IMG/VR virus record: IMGVR_UViG_3300012275_000062
Length of the DNA stretch: 24,444 nucleotides
Origin: a virus
Taxonomy: Duplodnaviria; Heunggongvirae; Uroviricota; Caudoviricetes
Strand: one strand, 5' to 3'
Below the pieces are notes generated by a model that was not told the origin of the DNA, did no database searches, and saw nothing but the letters and a program-made list of their open reading frames with translations. The translations under genes and the position numbers were made by a program. This document shows, in pieces, positions 1,138-13,435 of the stretch. Position 1 is the first letter of the stretch; every line of letters begins with the position of its first letter.

Positions 1138-2394
1138 TCATTCATTTTTAACTGCTTCATTTGACCCAGCTTCAAAACTTGATATTTTAAAATTAACAAG
1201 TTCTTTAATAGAATGGCAAATATTCATTAAATCATGTATCTCGAAATTATCACATTTTCTCAGAACATCATCATTAGTTGAGATATTAATTAAATTCATT
1301 ACGTCTTCGGCATTGAACTTTTCGTCATGCAAAACATTTTGGAATGTTGTTTGTATTACTTTGTAATAGCTATTAATATTTTCACTGTTTGAATGTGTAA
1401 GTTGATATAAATGTCTTATTTGTAGATATAATTCAAGCACTCTGTCTTTGAATAATTCTTCATCACTTTTAGTATTGTTAGAAAACTCATTCTCAAACTG
1501 GGATGTTAATTCTTCTTTTTCCTTCGGATCAATAGTCAGAGTCTCGGTTTTTTCAATTGCTTTTTTTAGTATTGGACTCAGTGTATTTGTAAGGCGAATT
1601 ACTTCATCAAGATCTTGTTTAGTAAAATCTCTATTATGAGCAACTTTGCATCTGAGTCGATATAAAATACTCCAATTTTTTATTATAGTGTCAGCATTTG
1701 CTTCGATGTTTGACTCAAAGAATTTTTCCCAGTTTGTTCTGGGAACGATTTTTTTCAATTCTGAGAATATATCAGCATTAATGTCTTTAAATTCAAGCGG
1801 GGTTAATTTTCGGATCAAATCTGTTATTTCAATCTCTCGGTAAGATTTGAATATAAAGTCAGAAAGTTCAATAAAGTCAACTTGATACATTAAATTATGT
1901 TCATTATATTCTGTGTTTTTTTCGGATTTTTTCAATGCTTCTGAAAATTCCTTCGGCACTGAATCTTTTGTCCAAGACAATCCAACGTTATGTATCATGA
2001 ATTTTGTTATTAATTTTCTCATTAAGTTTTCAATTTCATGGATTAATGGATAAGCCTGAATTGAGTAATATTTGCTTATATCATCCCAAATAATTTGAGT
2101 GCTACCTAAATTACTTTCGCTAGATATTTTTTTGAAGAGTCTGGTTAATCTTGAGAAAGTGATTAAATTATCTTCACTAACGTCGTTTAGTGTTAATTTT
2201 ACAGAGATAGTTTCTTTATTGCTTCCATATTCTGATATATCATATTTAAATGACTGTTCTTTGAATTTTAATTCTTTTGGTGAAAATATGACTTCCTCAC
2301 TGGCCTCAATTATTTTTTTATAGGCTGACGGAGAGCGTCCAAAGGAAGTATCTTTATTCACTATTAATAACATCTCGACTATACATTCATCCAT
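1138..2394 (-). CDS. AT-rich cargo protein, 418 aa, with an R-x4-H (HEPN-like) motif; candidate abortive-infection or defense effector
   Basis: Long ORF in a very AT-rich segment with Lys/Asn/Ile/Glu-rich codon usage unlike the backbone. Motif YRLRCKVAHNRDF (residues ~245-257, nt ~1636-1653) fits the HEPN R-x4-6-H signature. SD GAGGAG lies 7 nt upstream of the ATG at 2394. Co-oriented with cI and int. Confidence 0.7.
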   Translation of the reverse strand: MDECIVEMLLIVNKDTSFGRSPSAYKKIIEASEEVIFSPKELKFKEQSFKYDISEYGSNKETISVKLTLNDVSEDNLITFSRLTRLFKKISSESNLGSTQIIWDDISKYYSIQAYPLIHEIENLMRKLITKFMIHNVGLSWTKDSVPKEFSEALKKSEKNTEYNEHNLMYQVDFIELSDFIFKSYREIEITDLIRKLTPLEFKDINADIFSELKKIVPRTNWEKFFESNIEANADTIIKNWSILYRLRCKVAHNRDFTKQDLDEVIRLTNTLSPILKKAIEKTETLTIDPKEKEELTSQFENEFSNNTKSDEELFKDRVLELYLQIRHLYQLTHSNSENINSYYKVIQTTFQNVLHDEKFNAEDVMNLINISTNDDVLRKCDNFEIHDLMNICHSIKELVNFKISSFEAGSNEAVKNE

Positions 2395-2440
2395 TAATTA
2401 GCTCCTCGTTCACGTGATTTATTTTGCTAAAATTTAAGTT

Positions 2441-3007
2441 TTATTTATATTCAAGACATGCCATCACGATTTTTGCGATCATTATTATATCTTCTAACGC
2501 GCATTCGAAAGGAGATATACCACCTTCCACATGAAGGCGCCTGCCAGGCAAGCGTGTAATTGTTCTCATTGATATTTCACCATCAATATTAACAATCCAT
2601 TTTCCATCACGGACATCATCATAATCAATATCACAAATGTATTTGGAACTATCAACAACAACAACCATCGGATTTTTTAGAGCTTTAGGTAGAAAATTTA
2701 CATCAAAAACATAAGACCCTTCAGGACAAAGTTCACCATCATAGAGAATTTTTAGCGGAAGTTCTTTGGTGTTTTCATTTTGTGAACCCTCTTTGATTCC
2801 GTAGCCATTAGTCAGCCAGCTCAATGACGTACCTGTCTCTAAGGCGCACTGAATAACCCATTCCGCAGGGAAGGAGTCGCGCATATAGCGTGTCGCCAAA
2901 GTACTCTTTGAAATCCCTAAATGGTCGCACAAAGCTTGTCTTGTCTTGAAGCCATAGGCTTCAACCATACGCTCTATGGCACCACGGCCGCCTTTTTCCA
3001 AATTCAT
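2441..3007 (-). CDS. cI: Immunity repressor CI (186-type), about 188 aa
   Basis: N-terminal HTH-like segment (GFKTRQALCDHLGISKSTLATRYMRD) plus a C-terminal domain; length and position match 186 CI rather than the 99-aa P2 C. Start taken at ATG 3007 (SD GGAG upstream); the ORF track starts at GTG 3013. Divergent from the apl/cII operon. Confidence 0.75.
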   Translation of the reverse strand: MNLEKGGRGAIERMVEAYGFKTRQALCDHLGISKSTLATRYMRDSFPAEWVIQCALETGTSLSWLTNGYGIKEGSQNENTKELPLKILYDGELCPEGSYVFDVNFLPKALKNPMVVVVDSSKYICDIDYDDVRDGKWIVNIDGEISMRTITRLPGRRLHVEGGISPFECALEDIIMIAKIVMACLEYK

Positions 3008-3031
3008 GGTCACTCCAGGTGAACTTTTATC

Positions 3032-3060
3032 TTGACGATTTCATGATGTGATCGTATGTT
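3032..3060 (+). promoter_or_regulatory. Candidate rightward lytic promoter (pR-like) in the switch region
   Basis: TTGACG (3032-3037), 17-nt spacer, TATGTT (3055-3060), upstream of the apl-like gene. A perfect palindrome TGATTAATCA (3099-3108) lies between this promoter and the apl start and could be an operator. Confidence 0.35.
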
Positions 3061-3132
3061 TATCGTGTTCACAAAATACAAACGATCAGTATTCATCCTG
3101 ATTAATCATTGCTAAACGAGGAATGTTGCATC

Positions 3133-3354
3133 ATGAGACCTAACATTTCAATCACTCTCATCACCCCCCACGTCACTATTGAAAGATATAGTGAACTCAC
3201 TGGGTTATCTATCGACACAATCAACGACATGCTTGCGGATGGGCGATTGCTTCGTCATCGCCTACGCAAGGACAAAAAGCGTGAAAAAGTGATGATTAAC
3301 ATCGCTGCGATGACGGTCGATGCTCTTTCTGATTGCAATGTGACTATCAACTAG
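3133..3354 (+). CDS. apl: Small Apl/Cox-like excisionase and switch regulator, 73 aa
   Basis: First gene of the rightward operon, divergent from cI and immediately upstream of cII, which is the Apl position in 186. ATG 3133 with GAGGAA SD; the ORF track begins at an upstream TTG (3109). Assigned by position and size only. Confidence 0.5.
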   Translation: MRPNISITLITPHVTIERYSELTGLSIDTINDMLADGRLLRHRLRKDKKREKVMINIAAMTVDALSDCNVTIN

Positions 3355-3386
3355 TTCCATTCTGAGACTTCACGGAGCAACTGACT

Positions 3387-3896
3387 ATGTTTGACTATCG
3401 CATATCAAAACATCCGCATTTCCATGATGCCTGTCGGGCTTTTGCTTTACGGCACAACATGGCGAAGCTGGCAGAACTTGCAGGCATGAACGTCCAAACC
3501 CTGCGCAATAAGCTCAACCCGGAGCAACCGCACCAGCTCACGGCGCCAGACATATGGCTGCTAACCGATCTCACCGAAGACTCCACATTAGTTGATGGGT
3601 TTCTGGCGCAAATTCATTGCTTGCCATGTGTTCCGGTAAACGAAGTTGCAAAAGAGAAATTGCCGCATTACGTCATGAGCGCTACCGCAGAAATAGGTCG
3701 TGTTGCTGCAGGTGCCGTCTCTGGTGAAGTGAAAACTACCGCAGGCCGCCGCGATGTAATTAGCAGCATTAATTCAGTTACGCGTTTGATGGCACTGACT
3801 GCAGTTTCATTACAGGCGCGTTTGCAGGCTAACCCAGCGATGGCAAGCGCAGTAGATACCGTGACGGGCCTCGGTGCTTCGTTCGGTCTGATCTGA
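3387..3896 (+). CDS. cII: CII-like establishment-of-lysogeny activator (186 CII family), 169 aa
   Basis: Translation MFDYRISKHPHFHDACRAFALRHNMAKLAELAGMNVQTLRNKLNPEQ... matches my recollection of 186 CII in sequence and length. SD ACGGAG upstream of ATG 3387. Confidence 0.7.
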   Translation: MFDYRISKHPHFHDACRAFALRHNMAKLAELAGMNVQTLRNKLNPEQPHQLTAPDIWLLTDLTEDSTLVDGFLAQIHCLPCVPVNEVAKEKLPHYVMSATAEIGRVAAGAVSGEVKTTAGRRDVISSINSVTRLMALTAVSLQARLQANPAMASAVDTVTGLGASFGLI

Positions 3897-3903
3897 GGTG
3901 GTT

Positions 3904-4237
3904 ATGCTGACGAAAGAACCTTCATTTGCATCACTATTGGTGAGGCAAAGCCCGGCAATGCACTGCGGTCATGGCTGGATTATGGGGAAGGATGGCAAGC
4001 GCTGGCACCTGTGCCGTACTCAGAATGCGCTTCTGGATGAATTGTCTACAACCAAAAAGGGGAAATCATGGCGCAAGCTACAGAAGGTGTGTTTTACCAG
4101 TTCTTCCATAAGGGCGAAAAGTATTCAATTCATGAGGACGAGTTTGCAAGTTGTTATCCGTCTCTTTCGGGTGATGGTAGTTACTATTTTACGTTGCGAG
4201 ATGGGACATTCTTTCGGGGGGAACGGGTTCAGGAAGT
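3904..4237 (+). CDS. Hypothetical early protein (186 fil/dhr position); 3' end undetermined because the frame runs into the N-gap
   Basis: ATG 3904 just after the cII stop with SD GAGG. No stop codon before the gap at 4238. The downstream part of this frame looks non-protein-like, so the real gene is probably short. Confidence 0.3.
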
Positions 4238-4352
4238 NNNNNNNNNNNNNNNNNNNNNNNNNNNNNNNNNNNGAAAAGCACATCACCTCTTGAACAGTAT
4301 CGCCAACAAACTTATCGGTAACGCTCTATTAGCTCCTGAAGTTTGTAGGTGA
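4068..4352 (+). CDS. Hypothetical early protein, interrupted by the assembly gap 4238-4272
   Basis: ATG 4068 preceded by a strong SD (AAAAAGGGGAAATC). Protein-like N-terminus MAQATEGVFYQFFHKGEKYSIHEDEF... Length is unreliable because of the N-run. Confidence 0.45.
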   Translation: MAQATEGVFYQFFHKGEKYSIHEDEFASCYPSLSGDGSYYFTLRDGTFFRGERVQEXXXXXXXXXXXXXKAHHLLNSIANKLIGNALLAPEVCR

Positions 4353-4560
4353 ATTCCTGACGTTTGAGTGAGCCTGGCGGCAATTTGTTTAATTCTTCAC
4401 GAAGGATGTTTAAAAATGCTGACTGATTCGATGATTCTCCTCGTAGCACACTGTGTAGTAAGCCAGACAGCAGGATTTGTTGCATCTCAACATCCTCTCG
4501 CAGTCGCGCAATTTCATTTTCAAGCTGCTCGATCCGTTCCTTCTCAACCAGGTTCAACAT
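4312..4560 (-). CDS. Hypothetical small coiled-coil protein, about 82 aa, antisense to the early operon
   Basis: Minus-strand ORF. Start preferred at ATG 4560 (SD GAGGG 7 nt upstream) rather than the ORF-track start at 4590. Heptad-like translation (EQLENEIARLREDVEMQQILL). Confidence 0.45.
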   Translation of the reverse strand: MLNLVEKERIEQLENEIARLREDVEMQQILLSGLLHSVLRGESSNQSAFLNILREELNKLPPGSLKRQEFTYKLQELIERYR

Positions 4561-4627
4561 TGGTACACCCTCTGAGTTATCTCGTTGCATCGGAAAATCA
4601 TATCAGAGAAGGAGTAGTAAGTGACCA

Positions 4628-4981
4628 GTGGGGGAATTTATGGCTATTGAAGGCGCTGTGGTGACTGTCCCATTAAGCCCCGGTAAACGCCTGGACGGAC
4701 TGAACCATATTGCAGAATTACGCGCAAAAGTGTTTGGCCTGAATATTGAGTCGGAGCTTGAAAGGTTCATTGAAGATATGCGCAACCAAAGGGACGTTAA
4801 CAATAAACAAAATGTGAGGGCATTGGCAGCCATATTTTATATGGCAAAAATTCCGGCAGAACGTCATAGCGTCAATATTAGTGATCTGACTACTGACGAA
4901 AAGCGGGAACTGATTAAAGCAATGAATCATTTTCGTGCAGTGGTGAGCTTATTTCCAAAACGGCTAACCATGCCGAATTAA
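4628..4981 (+). CDS. Hypothetical early protein, 117 aa
   Basis: ORF in the rightward early operon. Alternative in-frame start at ATG 4640. No motif recognised. Confidence 0.55.
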   Translation: MGEFMAIEGAVVTVPLSPGKRLDGLNHIAELRAKVFGLNIESELERFIEDMRNQRDVNNKQNVRALAAIFYMAKIPAERHSVNISDLTTDEKRELIKAMNHFRAVVSLFPKRLTMPN

Positions 4982-5048
4982 TCCAAAACAGAAATTAATG
5001 GCGTAAACCCGCAGGGTTTCTTATGGCCCAAATTCAGGAGAAACAACT

Positions 5049-5282
5049 ATGCGAAATATTGAAATCCGTATCACCAAATCCGGACCAGATGATGCTGGAC
5101 TTAACCAATTGCTGACTGATGCACGCATGGAAGAACGCCGGGCACGTGCCTCAGCAATGGCAGCCCGTCTTGATAGCCTGGCTTGCCATATCACGTCACG
5201 CCAGCTTAACCACGTTGAAGCGGCAGAGCTGCTGCGTATTGCGGCTGAAAACATTCAGAACGAAGCGCAGGAGATCCACTGA
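5049..5282 (+). CDS. Hypothetical early protein, 77 aa
   Basis: Strong SD (AGGAGAAACAACT) before ATG 5049. Stop overlaps the next start (TGATG at 5280-5284), suggesting translational coupling. Confidence 0.6.
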   Translation: MRNIEIRITKSGPDDAGLNQLLTDARMEERRARASAMAARLDSLACHITSRQLNHVEAAELLRIAAENIQNEAQEIH

Positions 5283-5509
5283 TGGCTGATTCAATGGACC
5301 TCGTGCAACAGCGCGTTGAAGAAGAACGTCAGCGCCATATCCAAACAGCTCGCAGCCGAAAGACTGGGGCTTCTTCTCTGGAGTGTGAGTGTTGCGGAAT
5401 CGTCATCCCGGAACAGCGCCGTGCTGCAGTGCCGGGCTGTGATCTCTGCGTCACCTGTAAGGAAATAGCAGAGCTGAAAGGGATGCACTACACCCGAGGT
5501 GCTTTGTGA
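5282..5509 (+). CDS. TraR/DksA-family C4 zinc-finger protein, 75 aa
   Basis: CxxC-N17-CxxC arrangement ([25 protein letters not shown]), typical of phage TraR-like zinc fingers. Coupled to the upstream ORF. Confidence 0.65.
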
Positions 5510-5528
5510 GCTTTGGAGTCTTCCAGTG

Positions 5529-7955
5529 ATGTCTGAGCTACTAAAAGATAAAGGCGGTCCGATTGTGACCGCCGTGGCCTTTCCATGGAATACCCCAAAA
5601 AAAGCGGTTAACCCGTATTTGGACCCGGCGGAATTTGCGCCTGAGTCTGCGCTTTCAAACCTCATCACTCTGTACGCTGCAGATAACGAGCAGGAGCATC
5701 TGCGCCGTGAGGCGCTGAGTGATGAGGTGTGGGAACGTTATTTCTTCAATGAATCCCGCGATCCTGTCCAGCGTGAAATAGAGCAGGATCGGCTGATTAG
5801 CCATGCCAGAATGGCCCGCGAGCAGCAGCGCGTTAATCCCGATTTGGTGATTATTGCCGATGTAAGCGCCATGCCTGCCCATATCAGCAAGCCTCTGTTA
5901 GAGCGGATTAAATACTTCAATAGCCTAGGCAGGGCTAAAGCTTATTCCCGTTATCTGCGCGAAACAATCAGGCCTTGTTTTGAGCGGCTGGAGCGAGTGC
6001 GTGACAGCCAGGTGTCTGCATCTTTCCGATTCATGGCGAGCCAGGACGGGCTGGAGGGATTGCTGGTACTTCCTGAAATGAATCAGGATCAGGTCAAGCG
6101 CCTTTCCACGCTGGTTGCGGCACATATGAGCATGTGTCTTGATGCGGCTTGCGGTGATCTGTTTGTCAGTGACGATGTTAAACCAGAAGAAATCCGCCAG
6201 GCGTGGGAAAGGGTTGCTGCAGAAGCCATGCGCCTTGAGGTCATTCCGCCTGCCTTTGAGAAGTTGCGCCGCAAAAAGCGCCGTCGCAAGCCAGTGCCTT
6301 ATGAACTGATCCCACCGTCGCTGGCGCGCATGCTGTGCGCGGACTGGTGGTATCGCAAATTGTGGCAGATGCGCTGCGAGTGGCGGGAGGAGCAGATGCG
6401 CGCCGTCTGTCTGGTCAACAAGAAAGCGTCCCCGTATGTCAGTTATGAAGCCGTGATACACAAACGCGAGCAGCGTCGCAAATCGTTGGAGTTCTTCCGC
6501 TCGCATGAGCTGGTCAATGAAGACGGCGACACGCTGGACATGGAAGATGTAGTGAACGCCAGCAACAGTAACCCGGCACACCGCCGTAATGAAATGATGA
6601 CCTGTGTTAAGGGGCTGGAACTGATAGCGGAAATGCGCGGAGACTGCGCGGTGTTCTATACCATCACCTGCCCGTCACGCTTCCACGCAACCCTCAACAA
6701 CGGCAGACCTAATCCGAAGTGGACCAGTGCCACTGTCCGGCAGAGCAGTGATTATCTGGTTGATACGTTCGCCGCTTTCCGCAAGGCCATGCACAAGGCC
6801 GGATTGCGCTGGTACGGCGTCCGCGTTGCAGAGCCGCACCATGACGGCACCGTGCACTGGCATCTTCTGTGCTTTATGCGCAAAAAAGACCGTCGTTCCA
6901 TCACCGCGCTGCTGCGTAAGTTCGCCATCCGTGAAGACCGCGAGGAACTGGGCACCAATACCGGCCCGCGCTTCAAGTCCGAGCTAATCAACCCGCGCAA
7001 GGGTACACCGACCAGCTACATCGCCAAATACATCAGTAAGAACATCGACGGGCGCGGGCTGGCTAAAGAAATCAGCAAAGAAACCGGCAGATCATTGCGT
7101 GACAGCGCCGAGCATGTCTGTGCCTGGGCGTCACTGCACCGTGTCCAGCAATTCCGTTTCTTTGGTATCCCGGGGCGTCAGGCATACCGTGAGCTGCGCT
7201 TGCTGGCTGGTCAGGCGGCGAGAGTGCAGGGCGAACGCAAAGCGGGTGCACCGGTACTGGATAATCCGCGTCTGGATGCGGTACTGGCAGCTGCAGATGC
7301 GGGTTGCTTTGCCACTTACATCATGAAGCAGGGCGGTGTACTGGTTCCCCGCAAACATCACCTTGTCCGCACGGCTTATGAGCTTAACGACGAACCGAGC
7401 GCTTACGGCGATCACGGTATCCGTATCTATGGCATCTGGTCCCCGATTATAGAGGGCAAGATTTGCACGCACGCGATGAAGTGNNNNNNNNNNAAGTGGA
7501 AAAAGGCCCGTAAGGCCGTTGACGTTCAGGAGGCGGCAGCCGACCAGGGCGCTTGCGCCCCTTGGACTCGTGGCAATAACTGTCCCCTTGCTGAAAATTT
7601 GAACCAGCAGGAGAAAGATAAATCAGCTGATGGGGACACCAGAACGGACATTACCTGCATGGATGACAAGGAGTTGCACGATTATCTGCACAGTTTGAGC
7701 AAAAAAGAGCGCCGGGAACTGGCTGCAAGGTTACGCCTGGTTAAGCCGAAACGGCGTAAAGACTACAAACAGCGAATTACAGATCATCAGCGACAACAGC
7801 TCGTCTATGAGCTGAATTCCAGAGGATTTGATGGTAGCGAGAAAGAGGTCGATTTACTCCTTCGCGGCGGCAGTATTCCGTCAGGAGCAGGCCTGCGTAT
7901 CTTCTATCGGAACCAGCGTTTGCAGGAAGATGACAAGTGGCGGAACCTGTATTAA
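5529..7955 (+). CDS. A: Replication initiation endonuclease A (P2 gpA family, rolling-circle HUH nuclease); contains an N-gap at 7484-7493
   Basis: HUH motif [12 protein letters not shown] (HWH at 6855-6863) and tandem catalytic tyrosines [12 protein letters not shown] (~7017-7040), both closely matching recalled P2 gpA. Start set at ATG 5529 ([12 protein letters not shown] upstream); the ORF track starts at GTG 5499. Confidence 0.85.
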
Positions 7956-8024
7956 TTACGCGGGTTAACAATTCGTGCTCTTAATAATACCAGGCATATC
8001 AGGCTGATGAACGTAAAAAAACGT

Positions 8025-8067
8025 TTTACATCAGTAAGATTATTATATACTGTAAATATAAACAGTG
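8025..8067 (+). promoter_or_regulatory. SOS-regulated promoter with a near-consensus LexA box
   Basis: TACTGTAAATATAAACAGTG (8048-8067) fits the CTGT-N8-ACAG LexA box and overlaps a -10-like TATACT (8046-8051). A -35-like TTTACA sits at 8025-8030. It is immediately upstream of the 62-aa gene. Confidence 0.55.
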
Positions 8068-8108
8068 GTTATGTATACAGTGTTGCTTGTGGTGTCATAG
8101 GAGGAAAG

Positions 8109-8297
8109 ATGCAGGACTATTTTTTGGAGTCTTTGAAGCTCCAGCGCATTGATTTTTTTCTTAAGCTTGTAGCGGCCAGTGAGTGTAGTGATGAAGAGAA
8201 GAGACTGGCTATCCAGTGGGTTTCTGAGCTGACTGACGAGTTGATGGCGAAAATTCGTAACTATGAATACAGCCGTACAATGGACGCTACCAGCTAG
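8109..8297 (+). CDS. SOS-controlled small protein, 62 aa; candidate Tum-like antirepressor
   Basis: ATG 8109 preceded by AGGAGG. It is the first gene downstream of the LexA box, in the position of the LexA-controlled tum operon of phage 186. Function is inferred from context only. Confidence 0.5.
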   Translation: MQDYFLESLKLQRIDFFLKLVAASECSDEEKRLAIQWVSELTDELMAKIRNYEYSRTMDATS

Positions 8298-8307
8298 GGG
8301 AAAACCT

Positions 8308-8537
8308 ATGCGCATTGAAACAATGATCGATAAAGAGCAGTAAATTAGCTAGGCGCTGTTAGAAGCCGTTGAATCCGAGCTTTACCGCAACCTGCAGCCT
8401 ATCTATCCAAAGACAGCAATCCGCATTCGTAAAGGTTCGGCAAACGGCGTTGAGCTGAGCGGCTTAAAACTTGATGAAGACAAAAGCGAGTGATGGAAAT
8501 CATGCAGCATGTTTGGGAAGATGAGAGCTGCTTTTAA
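8308..8537 (+). pseudogene. DinI-family gene remnant, disrupted by two in-frame stops and a frameshift
   Basis: MRIETMIDKEQ then TAA (8341) and TAG (8350), then ...AIRIRKGSANGVELSGLKLDEDKSE, then a frameshift to MEIMQHVWEDESCF. These pieces align in order with recalled E. coli DinI (MRIEVTIAK ... SVRYAAANNLSVIGATKEDKQRISEILQETWESADDWF). Confidence 0.45.
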
Positions 8538-8560
8538 ATATCGATTTAGGGGAAAATCTC

Positions 8561-8586
8561 AACCTCATGCAGTATCGCATGAGGTT
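8561..8586 (+). terminator. Hairpin downstream of the dinI remnant (possible terminator)
   Basis: Perfect 10-bp inverted repeat AACCTCATGC / GCATGAGGTT with a 6-nt loop, followed by a weak T-tract (CATTT). Confidence 0.3.
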
Positions 8587-8680
8587 CATTTAGGCGAAAT
8601 TTGTGGGAATTTTCTACAAGTTTATGAGCGAATAATTCATTTTTGATGTGTTAATTTCTTAACAATTTGGGCTTTAATTC

Positions 8681-8708
8681 TTGTAAAGCAAGACATAACG
8701 TTTATGAT
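8681..8708 (+). promoter_or_regulatory. Candidate sigma70 promoter of the two-gene cargo operon
   Basis: TTGTAA (8681-8686), 16-nt spacer, TATGAT (8703-8708), in an AT-rich intergenic region about 45 nt upstream of the ATG at 8754. Confidence 0.35.
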
Positions 8709-8753
8709 TGATAAATATAAAAAATCTGAATAGGCAGGAAAGGAGTTTAACTC

Positions 8754-9269
8754 ATGCCTGGGTTAGAAAATGCACAGCAAAATCAAGTTGATGAAATCGT
8801 TCCAGCAATGCAAATCGCATTGGTCGAAGAAGATATAGAACAACCCATCGCTGCCGAATACCTATACAGCCAGCATATAAGTGCGCTTGTGCCACAATGC
8901 CCTCCTGCCGAAGCGACAGAGTGCGATAGAGAATGCTGGCGTTTTACACTGAATCCTATAAGTCACAACTGCTTTTGGCCTCCAAAAAGAAGATCACCGC
9001 AGCGAATTGCTTCCGACGATGCGGAGGAGTGTTCTATGTGGGCGTTGTCTATGTATGAATCAGAGGCCCAGGCTACAAGAGCCTATACCATGTTAGCGAA
9101 GAAGATGAAAAATATCAGAAAAGCTATTGGTGATCACCTTGCTGTGGGTTCAGTAACCTGTAGTGATGGTAAATGTATGCCTGCTAGCAGAACCGGTCAC
9201 TTTGATTTTCATCCTTATGTGGATGCGGATTTCGTTAACGGGTTCCAAGTAATACGAGCATTACCATGA
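8754..9269 (+). CDS. Cargo gene 1 of a two-gene operon: 171-aa Cys-rich protein of unknown family
   Basis: Strong SD AGGAAAGGAG before ATG 8754. Seven Cys residues. Translation is protein-like but carries no motif I recognise. Stop overlaps the start of the next gene (ATGA at 9266-9269). Confidence 0.75.
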   Translation: MPGLENAQQNQVDEIVPAMQIALVEEDIEQPIAAEYLYSQHISALVPQCPPAEATECDRECWRFTLNPISHNCFWPPKRRSPQRIASDDAEECSMWALSMYESEAQATRAYTMLAKKMKNIRKAIGDHLAVGSVTCSDGKCMPASRTGHFDFHPYVDADFVNGFQVIRALP

Positions 9270-10357
9270 TAAAATTAGATGCTAGAAGAATAAATGCGTC
9301 AACTGTCGGAGATTATTCTTGGTACTCTGACCTCGTATATTTCGATGGTCCCCTAATTTGCTTGTTTAGAGGAAGCGGATATAAAGATGCTCTTTATGTC
9401 TGGCTTGATAATTCGGAGCGTGCCAATCGTTGGTGCTTGATTCCAGTATCAAGATCTACTTTGGACTCTTATCTTAACCAAAGAATGAGTTTAAGGGAGA
9501 TTATACAATCGAGCGAATATACATATATCTGCGATCATTTTGCGAAAACCGGAAGGAAGCACTACAACATTTTGCACGTTGATAGTTTTCCTGAGGAGTA
9601 TATGCCTGATGAAGATTCATATTTGTATGAAGAAATATGTACTGATGATGCATTGCTGTTGAAGCAGGAGCGCACCTCCAGTTATATGCTTGGATTAGAT
9701 AATCAGTTGTTTATAAATGATTTATCTGTAATACCAAAAATTTTCGAACAGCTCTATTCTTTCCATTACGGATTGGCTCATTTAGGACGGTTGTCGATTA
9801 GAAATACCATGTTGCGTCTGATGGGGAATTGGACGGGTGGAATATCAGCAGTAAATATATTTTCAGGGTTGAAAAATGTTATTCCTGTTTTGCATCGACC
9901 AGAGATTAGCTCTCTCCAATACAATTCACCGGGGCATATTGAGTTAAATTTACTTCCTGATTTGGCTCAAAGTGTTCAAGATGCATCTATTCGTGTGAAA
10001 AGTGAGCTAGTTTATGACCGTCTGGAGAAAATGTATAAAAATACATATGCATACTTCAAGGATAATGGGCTGTCAGGCTTTGATGAAGACGGCGGCATTG
10101 AAATTAGAAATATCGATAGTGATACCACCGGAAACCTACGTAAACGCGTAAGAATATTTTTTAGATGTTTGGGGTGGTCAAGTTATCAAGCTCAGTTTGA
10201 TCTGATCGGTGCCCATCCTCTACAACAATTACGTGCTGTGATGGCCTACTACAGGCGGCTCAAAATCTTGCGTGAATACATTGTCTCCGAGAAGCTTTTT
10301 GTTGGTCAGTCTCGGGTGTTACAGCAGCCACAAATTGCTCTGCCTCCTGAGGATTAG
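9266..10357 (+). CDS. Cargo gene 2 of a two-gene operon: 363-aa protein of unknown family
   Basis: Translationally coupled to gene 1. AT-richer than the backbone. No Walker A, HUH, HEPN or other signature found by eye. Confidence 0.8.
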   Translation: MIKLDARRINASTVGDYSWYSDLVYFDGPLICLFRGSGYKDALYVWLDNSERANRWCLIPVSRSTLDSYLNQRMSLREIIQSSEYTYICDHFAKTGRKHYNILHVDSFPEEYMPDEDSYLYEEICTDDALLLKQERTSSYMLGLDNQLFINDLSVIPKIFEQLYSFHYGLAHLGRLSIRNTMLRLMGNWTGGISAVNIFSGLKNVIPVLHRPEISSLQYNSPGHIELNLLPDLAQSVQDASIRVKSELVYDRLEKMYKNTYAYFKDNGLSGFDEDGGIEIRNIDSDTTGNLRKRVRIFFRCLGWSSYQAQFDLIGAHPLQQLRAVMAYYRRLKILREYIVSEKLFVGQSRVLQQPQIALPPED

Positions 10358-10413
10358 ATTCTGCGTTATGCTGCATGAATCCGCATGATCGTTTGAGGAT
10401 CGTTCTAGATGAG

Positions 10414-10437
10414 GCCCGTCAGCAATGGCGGGCTTTT
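10414..10437 (+). terminator. Intrinsic-terminator-like hairpin downstream of the two-gene operon
   Basis: GC-rich stem GCCCG (10414-10418) / CGGGC (10429-10433) followed by TTTT (10434-10437). It may instead be part of the cos-region structure. Confidence 0.3.
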
Positions 10438-10482
10438 GCTAATGTCATGCTGGCGCATGAAAACCACTACATAAAGCGGGCA

Positions 10483-10501
10483 GGCGTGGCGGGGATACGA
10501 G
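10483..10501. other. Putative cos (cohesive-end) site of the P2/186 family
   Basis: GGCGTGGCGGGGATACGAG: the first 13 nt match the 19-nt cohesive end I recall for 186 (GGCGTGGCGGGGAAAGCAT; P2 is GGCGAGGCGGGGAAAGCAC). It lies where cos is expected, between the right-end accessory region and Q. Confidence 0.35.
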
Positions 10502-10635
10502 CGCGCTCTGATATGAAAATCTGAACAAATAATTACAAAATGGTATCTTTTTGTTGCTATCATCATTTTTGATGGTAACTTAACCTTTTCAGTTTCTATA
10601 TTATAAAATTCTATCCAGAAGAAGGAATTTGTTTC

Positions 10636-12417
10636 ATGGCTGAACTATTACCGCAAACAACTTCTATACAAACTATTTATTCATGGTTTACTGAAGGTAA
10701 GATATTTGTTAATAGACGTTATCAACGAAAATTAGTTTGGACTGCAATAGAGAAACAAAAATTAATTGAATCCATTCAAAAAAAATATCCAATTCCTGCA
10801 GTTCTTCTCGCGGAAAGGGAAAATGATCCTGGCACATATGAAATAATTGATGGCCTACAAAGATTACATGCAATAATGTCTTTCATCGAAACAGGATATG
10901 AATCACTTGATGGAAAACGTTTTAATCTGGACGCTTTTCCCACAGCGAAAAATCGAGCGGATGAAGGTAAGTTTGTTGCAGTGAAAGCTGATAATCTTTT
11001 AAGTCAGCGTGAGGTTACTCAGTTATTGGATTATTCTCTTGCAATGTCCATTATGCGTAATGCGACTGAGAACGAAATAAATGATGTTTTTGATAGAATT
11101 AATACATACGGGCATAGACTTAGTGATCAAGAAAGGCGCCAGGCTGGTATACAAAATAAATTTTCAAATATGGTTAGGGATATTGCCTGTTCTATCAGGG
11201 GGGATGTATCTGACGACATATTGCTTTTAGAGCAAATGCCGTCTATTAGCATTGATTTGCCACTAACTAAACATGGTTACCAAATTCAGTCGGAAGAAGT
11301 ATTTTGGGTAAAACATGGGATCTTACGTTCAACAGACCTTCGTGACAGTATGGATGAGCAATGCATTGCAGATATAGCAGCTTGTATTGTTGGAGGTAAG
11401 TTAATAGATCGTTCCAAAGATGCGCTTGATCAGATTTATAATAATGAAGATGAAGAGTATAGTCGTATTAGCTCTGCTATTAATGTTTATGGTGAAGGAA
11501 AATTTGCAGAAGAGTTTAAATTCTGCATCCAGGAAATAACAAAAGTATGTAATAGTGACGGTGAAATTAAACTCAGGGATTTAATCTTTACTAAACGTAC
11601 TACAAATGCTTTCCCAGCCATATTTGCTGTGTTATTTATTGCTTTTCATGAATTACTCATTAAAGAAAATAAGAAGATTAATAATTATAAAGGTGTAAAA
11701 GACAATCTTAATAATATAGTCACTCGACTAGATACTAAAAGATCTGCTACTGGTGGGGAAGAGAGAAGAAAGAATATTAATTCTATCATTGGCTTGATTA
11801 AAGATAACTTTATTGATAGCGCCGATAGCAGTCATATCTATAATTCTCACAATACGGTGGATATTGAGGATATTTTACGAAGATCTGAAATAGAGCTTGC
11901 AAATTATGAACTGAAACAGGGTTTGTTGATGTTAGGCGGAGAGCGAACTATTGATGATGGCATTCATGAGAAAATATTCTCCACAATTTGTGCTATTGCT
12001 AACATCGGTAAAGGTAACAAGAACGGTGTAGTTGGTAAGTTATTGCTTGGTGTAACAGATAAACCAAGTGATACAAGTAGAGTAAAAGAGCTTGATGATA
12101 TAGATGCACATGTAGTTGGTGAGAGAAGTGTTGTTGGTGTTAAAAGAGAAGCTATTAAACTCGGCATATCAATGGAAGAATATTATAGACGTTTTTGCGA
12201 TGAGTTGAAAAAATCTGCTTTGAGTGAGCCTCTTAAATCACAAGTGGTGAGTTTGATTGACTATAATGACTTTTATGGTTATGGAGTTATAGTTATTACA
12301 ATTCCACTTCTAGCATCTTATTCTAGTTATGATGGGGATATTTATTATCGTGCTGGCGATAATACCGTAAAAGCAACAGTTATCGAAGCAGCAGATATTG
12401 CAACACGTTTTAAATGA
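10636..12417 (+). CDS. Cargo protein, 593 aa: N-terminal DUF262 (ParB/Srx-like) domain fused to a C-terminal Schlafen/AlbA_2-like domain; candidate single-gene anti-phage system
   Basis: DUF262 signatures NRRYQRKLVW (residues ~27-35, nt ~10714-10740) and IIDGLQRLHAI (~70-80, nt ~10843-10875), plus the downstream FDRINTYGHRLS block. C-terminal ELANYELKQ ... IFSTICAIANIGKGNKNGVVGKLLLGVTD (~418-475) resembles the AlbA_2 core. Very AT-rich. Own SD (GAAGGAA) and AT-rich upstream region. Confidence 0.85.
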   Translation: MAELLPQTTSIQTIYSWFTEGKIFVNRRYQRKLVWTAIEKQKLIESIQKKYPIPAVLLAERENDPGTYEIIDGLQRLHAIMSFIETGYESLDGKRFNLDAFPTAKNRADEGKFVAVKADNLLSQREVTQLLDYSLAMSIMRNATENEINDVFDRINTYGHRLSDQERRQAGIQNKFSNMVRDIACSIRGDVSDDILLLEQMPSISIDLPLTKHGYQIQSEEVFWVKHGILRSTDLRDSMDEQCIADIAACIVGGKLIDRSKDALDQIYNNEDEEYSRISSAINVYGEGKFAEEFKFCIQEITKVCNSDGEIKLRDLIFTKRTTNAFPAIFAVLFIAFHELLIKENKKINNYKGVKDNLNNIVTRLDTKRSATGGEERRKNINSIIGLIKDNFIDSADSSHIYNSHNTVDIEDILRRSEIELANYELKQGLLMLGGERTIDDGIHEKIFSTICAIANIGKGNKNGVVGKLLLGVTDKPSDTSRVKELDDIDAHVVGERSVVGVKREAIKLGISMEEYYRRFCDELKKSALSEPLKSQVVSLIDYNDFYGYGVIVITIPLLASYSSYDGDIYYRAGDNTVKATVIEAADIATRFK

Positions 12418-12420
12418 AAG

Positions 12421-12442
12421 AACGCCTGCTCAGGCAGGCGTT
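12421..12442. terminator. Hairpin between the convergent 593-aa gene and Q (likely bidirectional terminator)
   Basis: Perfect 9-bp inverted repeat AACGCCTGC / GCAGGCGTT with a 4-nt loop, starting 4 nt after the 593-aa gene stop. On the minus strand it is followed by TTCTTTCATTT, i.e. downstream of Q. Confidence 0.45.
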
Positions 12443-12457
12443 AATTATAAACAGGAA

Positions 12458-13435
12458 CTACAAAATATATTTATTAAATGTAATTATATTTTCATCCAGC
12501 CAACAATTAAGCGCTTGCATCAATTTTTGCAAAGGTAAAAGCTCATTCCGCACAAATACCTTACTAGCTTTCTCTACATCCCCAAACCCCCCGACATTGC
12601 TAGGCATAATCCCCATCATTTGCGGCGGTACGCGGTGCGCCGCCATCATGTCGTCCCGGCTCACGTTCTTGATATTCAGAAACTCATCCTTCGCCGCGAC
12701 TTCTGACAGAGGAATGATCTGAAGCCCATCCTTTTTGCCGTTAGGCGAGTACATAAACAGGTTGCGGAAGTTACCCGGTCCTTTGGCGCTTTTCATTGCG
12801 TTGCGGAGGTTGTTCACATCCTCCTGGTTTTGCGCGGCATCGGTCATGTACATGATGAAGCCTGCATGACTGCCGTTAATGTAATACTTCCGGCGGAACA
12901 GCGTGGCGGACTCGTTGAGCAGAGCGGATGGAATAGCAGAAAGATAGCCAGGCAGGCCGTAGATCTCCNNNNNNNNNNTTGCCATACCGTATTGCACAAA
13001 CCAGTAGGTATCCAGGTCTAATCCGCGTCGAGTGTATTTTGCCAGGGCAGGTTCAAGGGCGATAACTTCACCGAAGCGGTTCGTGCGTTTCTCCAGGTAG
13101 GCATTACCAAATACCAGATAGTCCTGCACAAAACGTGAAAAAGCCTGCTGGCTGAGCAACGGGTGAGGGATATAGGTGCTGGTCAGAATGTTGCACTTTA
13201 CTGCAATCGGTGAGCTGTGGTGTACGGCGGCGCGGAAGGTTCGCGCCAGGCCGTCGAAACTCACTGGTGGCTCATACCAACGGTCCATCTGTACGCATTC
13301 CACATAGTCCAGCAGTTCGCGGCGGTCCAGAACAGGAACGGGATCACCGAAGCTGAATGCTTCGGCTGAAGTCTGGTTTTTATGCTGGATCTGTTTCGTC
13401 GCCGCAGCGCGGTTCTTCTTACTCTTTCCCATCAA
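12458..13435 (-). CDS. Q: Portal protein (P2 gpQ family); contains N-gap 12969-12978
   Basis: Position and orientation match P2 Q, divergent from O/N and adjacent to P. Translation is consistent with recalled gpQ. Length is uncertain because of the gap. Confidence 0.85.
   Translation of the reverse strand: MMGKSKKNRAAATKQIQHKNQTSAEAFSFGDPVPVLDRRELLDYVECVQMDRWYEPPVSFDGLARTFRAAVHHSSPIAVKCNILTSTYIPHPLLSQQAFSRFVQDYLVFGNAYLEKRTNRFGEVIALEPALAKYTRRGLDLDTYWFVQYGMAXXXXEIYGLPGYLSAIPSALLNESATLFRRKYYINGSHAGFIMYMTDAAQNQEDVNNLRNAMKSAKGPGNFRNLFMYSPNGKKDGLQIIPLSEVAAKDEFLNIKNVSRDDMMAAHRVPPQMMGIMPSNVGGFGDVEKASKVFVRNELLPLQKLMQALNCWLDENIITFNKYIL

Follow-up and report, generated by a model that had tools for sequence, protein, structure and literature searches.

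PD-T4-10 is a two-gene defence system that was found by functional selection in Escherichia coli ECOR65, in a study that predicted no function for either of its proteins (Vassallo et al. 2022, Nat Microbiol, PMC9519451). Here we analyse a two-gene operon located at positions 8754–10357 of the IMG/VR virus record IMGVR_UViG_3300012275_000062, a 24,444-nucleotide stretch of DNA of a tailed virus (hereafter the window). An earlier note, made from the letters alone, had described this pair as a cargo operon with no recognisable family. We conclude that it is very probably a copy of PD-T4-10, i.e. a toxin–antitoxin (TA) system with abortive infection (Abi) activity, carried as cargo by a 186/P2-type prophage, in the slot between its replication gene A and its portal gene.

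The published experiments on PD-T4-10 were carried out with the ECOR65 copy (PMC9519451). The second protein, B, is toxic when expressed by itself, and co-expression of the first, A, fully neutralises this toxicity. A could not be deleted, and deletion of B resulted in the loss of T4 resistance. Protection was best against phages T2, T4 and T6 and broke down at high multiplicity of infection, a sign of Abi. The system was picked by selection from a fosmid library of roughly single copy number and then tested again on a low-copy vector, from its native promoter, in a clone extending from 101 bp 5' of A to 207 bp 3' of B. The native deletion constructed in ECOR65 in the same study is that of another system, PD-T4-2, which lies on another contig. 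In the literature searched, we found no mechanism for PD-T4-10.

The slot between the gene for the replication endonuclease (gpA) and the portal gene is the tin/old site, a known hotspot that holds four of the systems described in that study; besides tin and old, the cargo of this P2 hotspot 1 comprises systems reported by Rousset et al. 2022 (cited in PMC9519451).

Identity of the operon

Both proteins were recognised nearly end to end by the PD-T4-10 models of PADLOC-DB (PDLC04023–04026). Protein A (171 amino acids, aa) matched PD-T4-10_A with an E-value of 9.8e-76, its residues 27–171 aligning with positions 3–148 of the 148-position model, and protein B (363 aa) matched PD-T4-10_B with an E-value of 8.2e-172, its residues 1–351 aligning with positions 1–351 of 353. 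Profile searches were the check that the earlier note had proposed, and they overturn its statement that the pair belongs to no recognisable family. The suggestion that the system is possibly of an undescribed type falls with it: PD-T4-10 has been in print since 2022 and has its own PADLOC models. On the other hand, the proposal that the pair is a defence or superinfection-exclusion module is borne out by the PD-T4-10 identity and by the published defence data on ECOR65.

An undescribed type of defence system without a known family is what the general-purpose databases would have suggested. Scans of A and B against Pfam, NCBIfam and PHROGs gave nothing above threshold, the sole weak match being that of B to Pfam DUF6575 (sub-threshold, E-value 9.8e-5, and also present in 70 of the 74 family members), and RefSeq labels both genes as encoding hypothetical proteins. 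However, this explanation is refuted by the nearly full-length PADLOC matches of the two proteins, as well as by the toxicity and defence data already published for PD-T4-10, and we consider its probability negligible.

The resemblance to the reference system extends to the organization of the locus. As in the reference, the two open reading frames (ORFs) are co-oriented and overlap, with A preceding B, and the operon spans 1604 bp, exactly as does the ECOR65 operon (196254–197857 on QOYX01000006). The host species and the kind of prophage hotspot are also the same, and the proteins are alike over nearly their full length, no difference being detected by profile. In the arrangement analysed here, a DUF262 gene follows the PD-T4-10 cassette as a second cargo.

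Operon architecture and expression signals

PD-T4-10A, the published antitoxin (8754–9269, plus strand), and PD-T4-10B, the published toxin (9266–10357, plus strand), share an ATGA stop/start overlap at 9266–9269, as the earlier note had read from the sequence. A strong Shine–Dalgarno sequence, AAGGAG, is indeed present 8 nucleotides 5' of the ATG of gene A (8740–8745), and no separate one is visible by eye for B. The overlap, of either 1 or 4 nucleotides, is found in every one of the 11 independent loci examined. We are highly confident that translational coupling sets the A:B ratio.

A promoter-like element, TTGTAA-16-TATGAT (8681–8708, plus strand), lies 46–73 nucleotides 5' of gene A and matches the consensus at 9 positions out of 12. 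Promoter-like sites are not enriched in the sequence (12 found versus 15.8 +/- 4.3 expected from shuffled sequence), and promoter hexamers prove nothing by themselves. The hexamers seen here do not rise above chance, but they fall within the 101 bp upstream of A that sufficed for expression from the native promoter in the published clone. On the 3' side, a hairpin (10411–10436, plus strand) with a GC-rich core stem and a GCAA loop is followed by a U4 run ending at 10437, as previously noted. The 91-nucleotide hairpin region has a folding energy of -34.5 kcal/mol (z-score -3.3). With only 4 T in its T run, the hairpin was not picked up by a consensus terminator scan; it is likely a weak intrinsic terminator of the operon. 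Since the published clone, which was active under its native promoter, maps to positions 8653–10564 of the window and thus spans both the promoter-like site and the hairpin, it constitutes the best available support for the two signals.

The two genes are AT-richer than their flanks, in agreement with the first reading: their GC contents are 0.45 (A) and 0.40 (B), compared to 0.55 for the replication gene and 0.56 for the late genes.

Hotspot context and cassette edges

The pair lies between the P2-type gpA gene (5499–7955) and the portal gene gpQ (from 12458, minus strand) and is co-oriented with the early operon. It thus occupies the P2 tin/old position to which it had been assigned, i.e. 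the slot shared by the four published systems. A conserved 62-aa ORF (phrog_698; 8109–8297) and a frameshifted dinI-like pseudogene (about 8344–8537) separate gpA from the cassette. In the prophage of E. coli W, the dinI-like gene is intact, the DUF262 gene is present and PD-T4-10 is absent. Homology between the window and this prophage covers 7901–8530 and 10367–12600 only: it stops at 8530 and restarts at 10367, which places the PD-T4-10 cassette at about 8531–10366 (plus strand). The insertion boundary had therefore been correctly located at the decayed dinI-like gene; reading the raw sequence was enough to pick out both the defence cassette and its boundary. In strain 200088, the region corresponding to 7901–10512 is conserved at 99.8%.

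The exact protein A sequence was found in 10 distinct contexts, all of them 186/P2-like prophages, and the gene order is the same in each: gpA, 62-aa ORF, A, B, second cargo, portal. The second cargo varies. It consists of the 593-aa GmrSD_N/DUF262 protein, arranged as in the window, in one context (L019), of AIPR proteins in L021, L023 and L027, of reverse transcriptases in L020 and L022, of a DUF4145 protein in L024, and of other genes in L018, L025 and L026. None of the complete E. coli genomes in the collection contains both the PD-T4-10 and the DUF262 modules.

Where the second cargo is another one (nine contexts), the homology with the window ends exactly at 10506. The 140-bp segment 10367–10506 is thus a linker that belongs both to the sequence flanking PD-T4-10 on its 3' side and to that flanking the DUF262 module on its 5' side, as delimited by the ends of homology. 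It carries the hairpin 10411–10436 and most of a 49-aa ORF (10375–10524) that matches the first 45 of the 72 positions of phrog_28685. About 88 other E. coli genomes, as well as the right end of phage Cartapus, contain the stretch 10356–10437 with 88–94% identity. We regard the linker as a candidate recombination joint between hotspot cassettes.

With the other cargo of P2 hotspot 1, PD-T4-10 shares the slot between gene A and the portal gene Q, a GC content below that of the phage backbone and the swapping observed among otherwise similar prophages, but the proteins themselves are unrelated. tin and old each consist of a single gene and work by different mechanisms.

Distribution of the pair

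The pair was detected, with at least 99.5% identity, in 13 of 5426 complete E. coli genomes, in all cases on the chromosome, whereas the flanking P2-like sequence was matched by 1268 genomes. This bears on the possibility, already raised in the earlier note, that A and B belong to the conserved core of 186/P2-like phages and serve the phage life cycle. Their location between two core genes and their orientation, which is that of the early operon, would be in keeping with such a role. However, the distribution refutes it. The PD-T4-10 genes were found in none of 50,697 phage records, DNA matches to phage genomes being confined to the linker, and a tblastn search of phage genomes with B gave no match. 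Moreover, the pair is replaced by other genes in related prophages, and homologs exist outside prophages in Marinobacter and Lysobacter. The probability of this explanation is practically nil.

The same data help to assess whether PD-T4-10 is mainly an addiction module that stabilises the prophage, its effect on T4 being a by-product of cloning outside the native context. The classical TA behaviour of the pair, including the fact that A is not deletable, is what one would expect of an addiction module, and no deletion of PD-T4-10 in its native strain was reported in the study. Against this, the system came out of a selection at about single copy and was tested again from its native promoter on a low-copy plasmid; many defence genes, tin and old among them, are known from the slot that it occupies; it is always followed by a further cargo of defence type, e.g. 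AIPR, a reverse transcriptase or DUF262; and its rarity (the 13 genomes mentioned above) does not suit a core maintenance function. We therefore hold a primarily prophage-stabilising role to be very unlikely and retain the interpretation of the locus as a PD-T4-10 defence cassette.

Pairing of A with the N-terminal domain of B

A profile search of 1.84 billion representative sequences yielded 1333 A-family proteins (representatives at 50% identity), 966 of them with an E-value of 1e-10 or better; among the 150 best-scoring of the 1333, nearly all are 130–190 aa long. In Marinobacter and Lysobacter, the gene immediately preceding B is an A homolog that gene callers had overlooked or truncated. 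A search for related loci with a 5-sequence alignment of A returned 3 loci. In 11 out of 11 independent loci, from Gammaproteobacteria and beyond, the gene that comes after the A-family gene overlaps it and encodes a protein whose first 125–145 residues or so match the N-terminal domain of B.

What follows this domain is variable. The partner is a full-length B in 7 loci and is cut by the contig end in 2. In L011 (gene pair at 2164–3740) and L014 (gene pair at 4001–5685), the A-family gene is a distant one; the partner is a 338-aa protein that resembles B only up to about residue 260 in the former and a complete protein of 416 aa that shares the N-terminal domain only in the latter. No effector domain is recognisable in the L011 and L014 partners, the C-terminal parts of which match no known domain of Pfam or PADLOC. 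There are also standalone proteins, of about 212 aa, whose similarity to B is limited to its C-terminal domain (hhalign probability 99%). One is encoded in Salmonella (L028, 4004–4645, NZ_CP092913.1) immediately behind ogrK, where a P2-like prophage ends, and another in a cassette-rich region of Vibrio (L029, 3974–4612, NZ_CP049914.1); neither has an A gene or an N-terminal domain nearby. (The Salmonella record is labelled as a plasmid, yet it bears the chromosomal genes fieF and pfkA.) The L014 partner, which shares the N-terminal domain only, and the standalone C-terminal proteins show that B is modular: in all the relatives examined, A comes with the N-terminal domain, whereas the C-terminal domain is autonomous.

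Domain structure of B

The AlphaFold 2 (AF2) model of B has a pLDDT of 90.6 and a pTM of 0.88. The N-terminal domain (residues 1–145; 9266–9700, plus strand), delineated from Pfam, the AF2 model and hhalign and hidden Markov model comparisons to the partners of distant A homologs, is beta-rich, acidic (isoelectric point, pI, 4.8) and DUF6575-like. The C-terminal domain (residues 146–363 plus the stop codon; 9701–10357, plus strand), as supported by the PADLOC match of the whole protein, the invariant columns and the standalone homologs, is helical and basic (pI 9.1); QLYxFHYGL, WxGG, HR, SPG and YYRR are its invariant motifs. Invariant arginines of the protein include R63, R330 and R331. Whether this C-terminal domain, which we presume to be the toxic effector, really plays that part is close to an even bet.

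Searches of the family for HEPN, Walker A, HNH, ExE and STS motifs disclosed nothing conserved, in line with the earlier observation that no Walker A or HEPN signature is discernible. In particular, the Rx4-6H motif of HEPN ribonucleases is not conserved in B, which is why we do not consider B a HEPN protein.

Full-length homologs of B form 81 clusters, confined to Gammaproteobacteria, and are conserved from residue 1. Many public annotations contain a 251-aa PD-T4-10B that starts at Met113, a form mirrored by the PADLOC model PDLC04025 (244 positions). Since residues 1–112 are conserved across the family, the 363-aa form is the real one and the 251-aa form is too short.

A predicted ADP-ribosyltransferase-like core in protein A

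Protein A consists of a disordered acidic extension found in Enterobacterales only (residues 1–35) and of a conserved core (residues 36–171), which is predicted to adopt an ADP-ribosyltransferase (ART)-like fold. In the AF2 model, the core forms a single mixed alpha/beta domain with a pLDDT above 93. The succession of its secondary structure elements fits an ART core whose strands 1, 2 and 5 bear R63, S99 and H149, respectively, these positions being assigned from secondary structure and not by superposition. Across 146 representatives at 25–42% identity, C49, C93, S99, G139 and H149 are invariant (146/146) and R63 nearly so (145/146), and R84 is present in 137. D151, which occupies the position expected for the catalytic acid, is found in only 92 of the 146, H149 being the invariant residue instead. 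Protein A does contain the 7 cysteines that had led it to be described as Cys-rich, but this is not a feature of the family, in which only C49 and C93 are conserved.

Other searches speak against the ART assignment. A Foldseek comparison of A with the PDB, another of the checks suggested at the outset, gave no significant match (best E-value 0.25); none of 54 A members matched a Pfam ART family, at E-values up to 10; and profile searches of PDB sequences with both families returned no relatives. Nor is a catalytic triad, R-S-E or H-Y-E, with its strand-5 acid, conserved in A. In view of the Foldseek, Pfam and PDB profile results, we tentatively call A ART-like and do not file it as a member of the ART family. 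No helix–turn–helix, ribbon–helix–helix, AbrB or other DNA-binding domain was detected in A with Pfam, NCBIfam and PHROGs; A is not a typical small DNA-binding antitoxin. Given its predicted ART-like core, A may instead bind nicotinamide adenine dinucleotide (NAD+) or an ADP-ribose-related ligand, or it may modify B.

ART-fold proteins are known from several TA systems (RES-Xre, ParST, MbcTA, NatRT and DarTG), but the ART-fold protein is the toxin there, whereas the protein with the predicted ART-like fold is the neutralising partner here. A also differs from RES and DarT in showing no sequence-profile match to them and in having no conserved catalytic acid. Antitoxins that are enzymes do exist, in the type VII TA systems HepT–MntA, TglT–TakA and Hha–TomB. 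The likeness of A to these is by analogy only and lies in its enzyme-like fold and its invariant polar residues; they act through AMPylation, phosphorylation or oxidation, whereas ADP-ribosylation would be the reaction proposed for A.

These comparisons raise the possibility that A is an active enzyme that holds B off by covalent modification, for instance ADP-ribosylation, and not just by binding to it, following a logic similar to that of type VII systems. The predicted fold, the location of the invariant or near-invariant residues R63, S99 and H149 at ART active-site places on strands 1, 2 and 5, and the lack of any DNA-binding or typical antitoxin domain are consistent with such an activity, and the invariant arginines R63, R330 and R331 of B could conceivably serve as acceptors. 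However, strand 5 carries no conserved catalytic Glu or Asp, Foldseek and sequence profiles lend no support to ART membership, and we found no precedent for an ART-type antitoxin in the literature searched. All in all, an enzymatic A seems improbable.

Other cargo and sequence features in the window

The DUF262 gene downstream of PD-T4-10 (10636–12417, plus strand; GC content 0.35) encodes a 593-aa protein with an N-terminal GmrSD_N/DUF262 domain (Pfam E-value 1.6e-22) and a weakly Schlafen AlbA_2-like C-terminus (E-value 1.2e-3); PHROG 26759 covers its full length. In PADLOC, its N-terminal domain alone matches NsnA (8e-31) and PD-T4-2_A (2e-18). We rejected its identification as PD-T4-2, since the match is restricted to that domain and both length and architecture differ. 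The gene is a second, separate defence-type cargo of the hotspot; the E. coli W prophage has it without PD-T4-10, and L019 has both.

At the other end of the window, a 418-aa ORF (1138–2394, minus strand) lies in a very AT-rich stretch (GC content about 0.30) between the genes for the integrase (1–1053) and the CI repressor (2441–3013). It weakly matches HEPN_Swt1 (E-value 5.6e-4) and the PADLOC model PDC-M34B (4e-7). At this position, related prophages encode a 63-aa YdcA or a SNIPE/T5orf172 protein, and this variability makes it look like a third variable cargo slot.

Runs of N at 4238–4272 (35), 7484–7493 (10) and 12969–12978 (10), in an early-region ORF, the gpA gene and the portal gene, respectively, show up as XXXX in the translations and have no biological meaning.

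Discussion

How might A restrain B, and how might infection relieve this restraint? We propose the following sequence of events. A and B would be produced in fixed proportion through translational coupling. A would then act on, or bind to, the DUF6575-like N-terminal domain of B; we consider this step fairly likely, since all the relatives examined pair A with this domain, whereas the remainder of the partner can differ. The growth-arresting effector would be the C-terminal domain of B, helical and basic, an assignment that could go either way. Finally, infection by a T-even phage would break the A–B restraint, and the freed B would stop the cell before phage release. A may act in this scheme by binding NAD+ or an ADP-ribose-type ligand or by modifying B, catalysis by A being doubtful.

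A bolder extension of this model is that PD-T4-10A founds a large, hitherto unrecognised branch of the ART fold, the members of which act as controlling partners rather than as toxins and gate interchangeable C-terminal effectors by way of a DUF6575-type N-terminal domain. This is an outside possibility. So is the form of control that would go with it, in which A would either ADP-ribosylate the effectors or sense an NAD+- or ADP-ribose-linked signal of T-even infection.

Several points weigh against the interpretation developed here. The equation of A and B with the ECOR65 proteins RCO36089.1 and RCO36088.1 is based on the profile matches and on operon length. The native deletion described above being that of PD-T4-2, the case for PD-T4-10 defence at native level comes from the low-copy clone and the single-copy fosmid only. 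Standalone C-terminal proteins that lack a visible partner are hard to fit with a constitutively toxic C-terminal domain. Lastly, the acidic residue present on strand 5 of active transferases is not conserved in A.

The locus is not new: the system, its TA behaviour and the hotspot have all been published, so that its discovery value is none. Its interest lies in what it offers for the study of PD-T4-10 and of the hotspot. The cassette edge and the shared linker may explain how cargo is shuffled at this site. The invariant residues of A on an ART-like scaffold and the two-domain dissection of B provide testable handles on the mechanism, and a further handle is provided by the division of the system into a conserved core, made of A and the N-terminal domain of B, and variable effector halves. 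If A did turn out to ADP-ribosylate its partner, it would represent a new class of enzymatic antitoxin.

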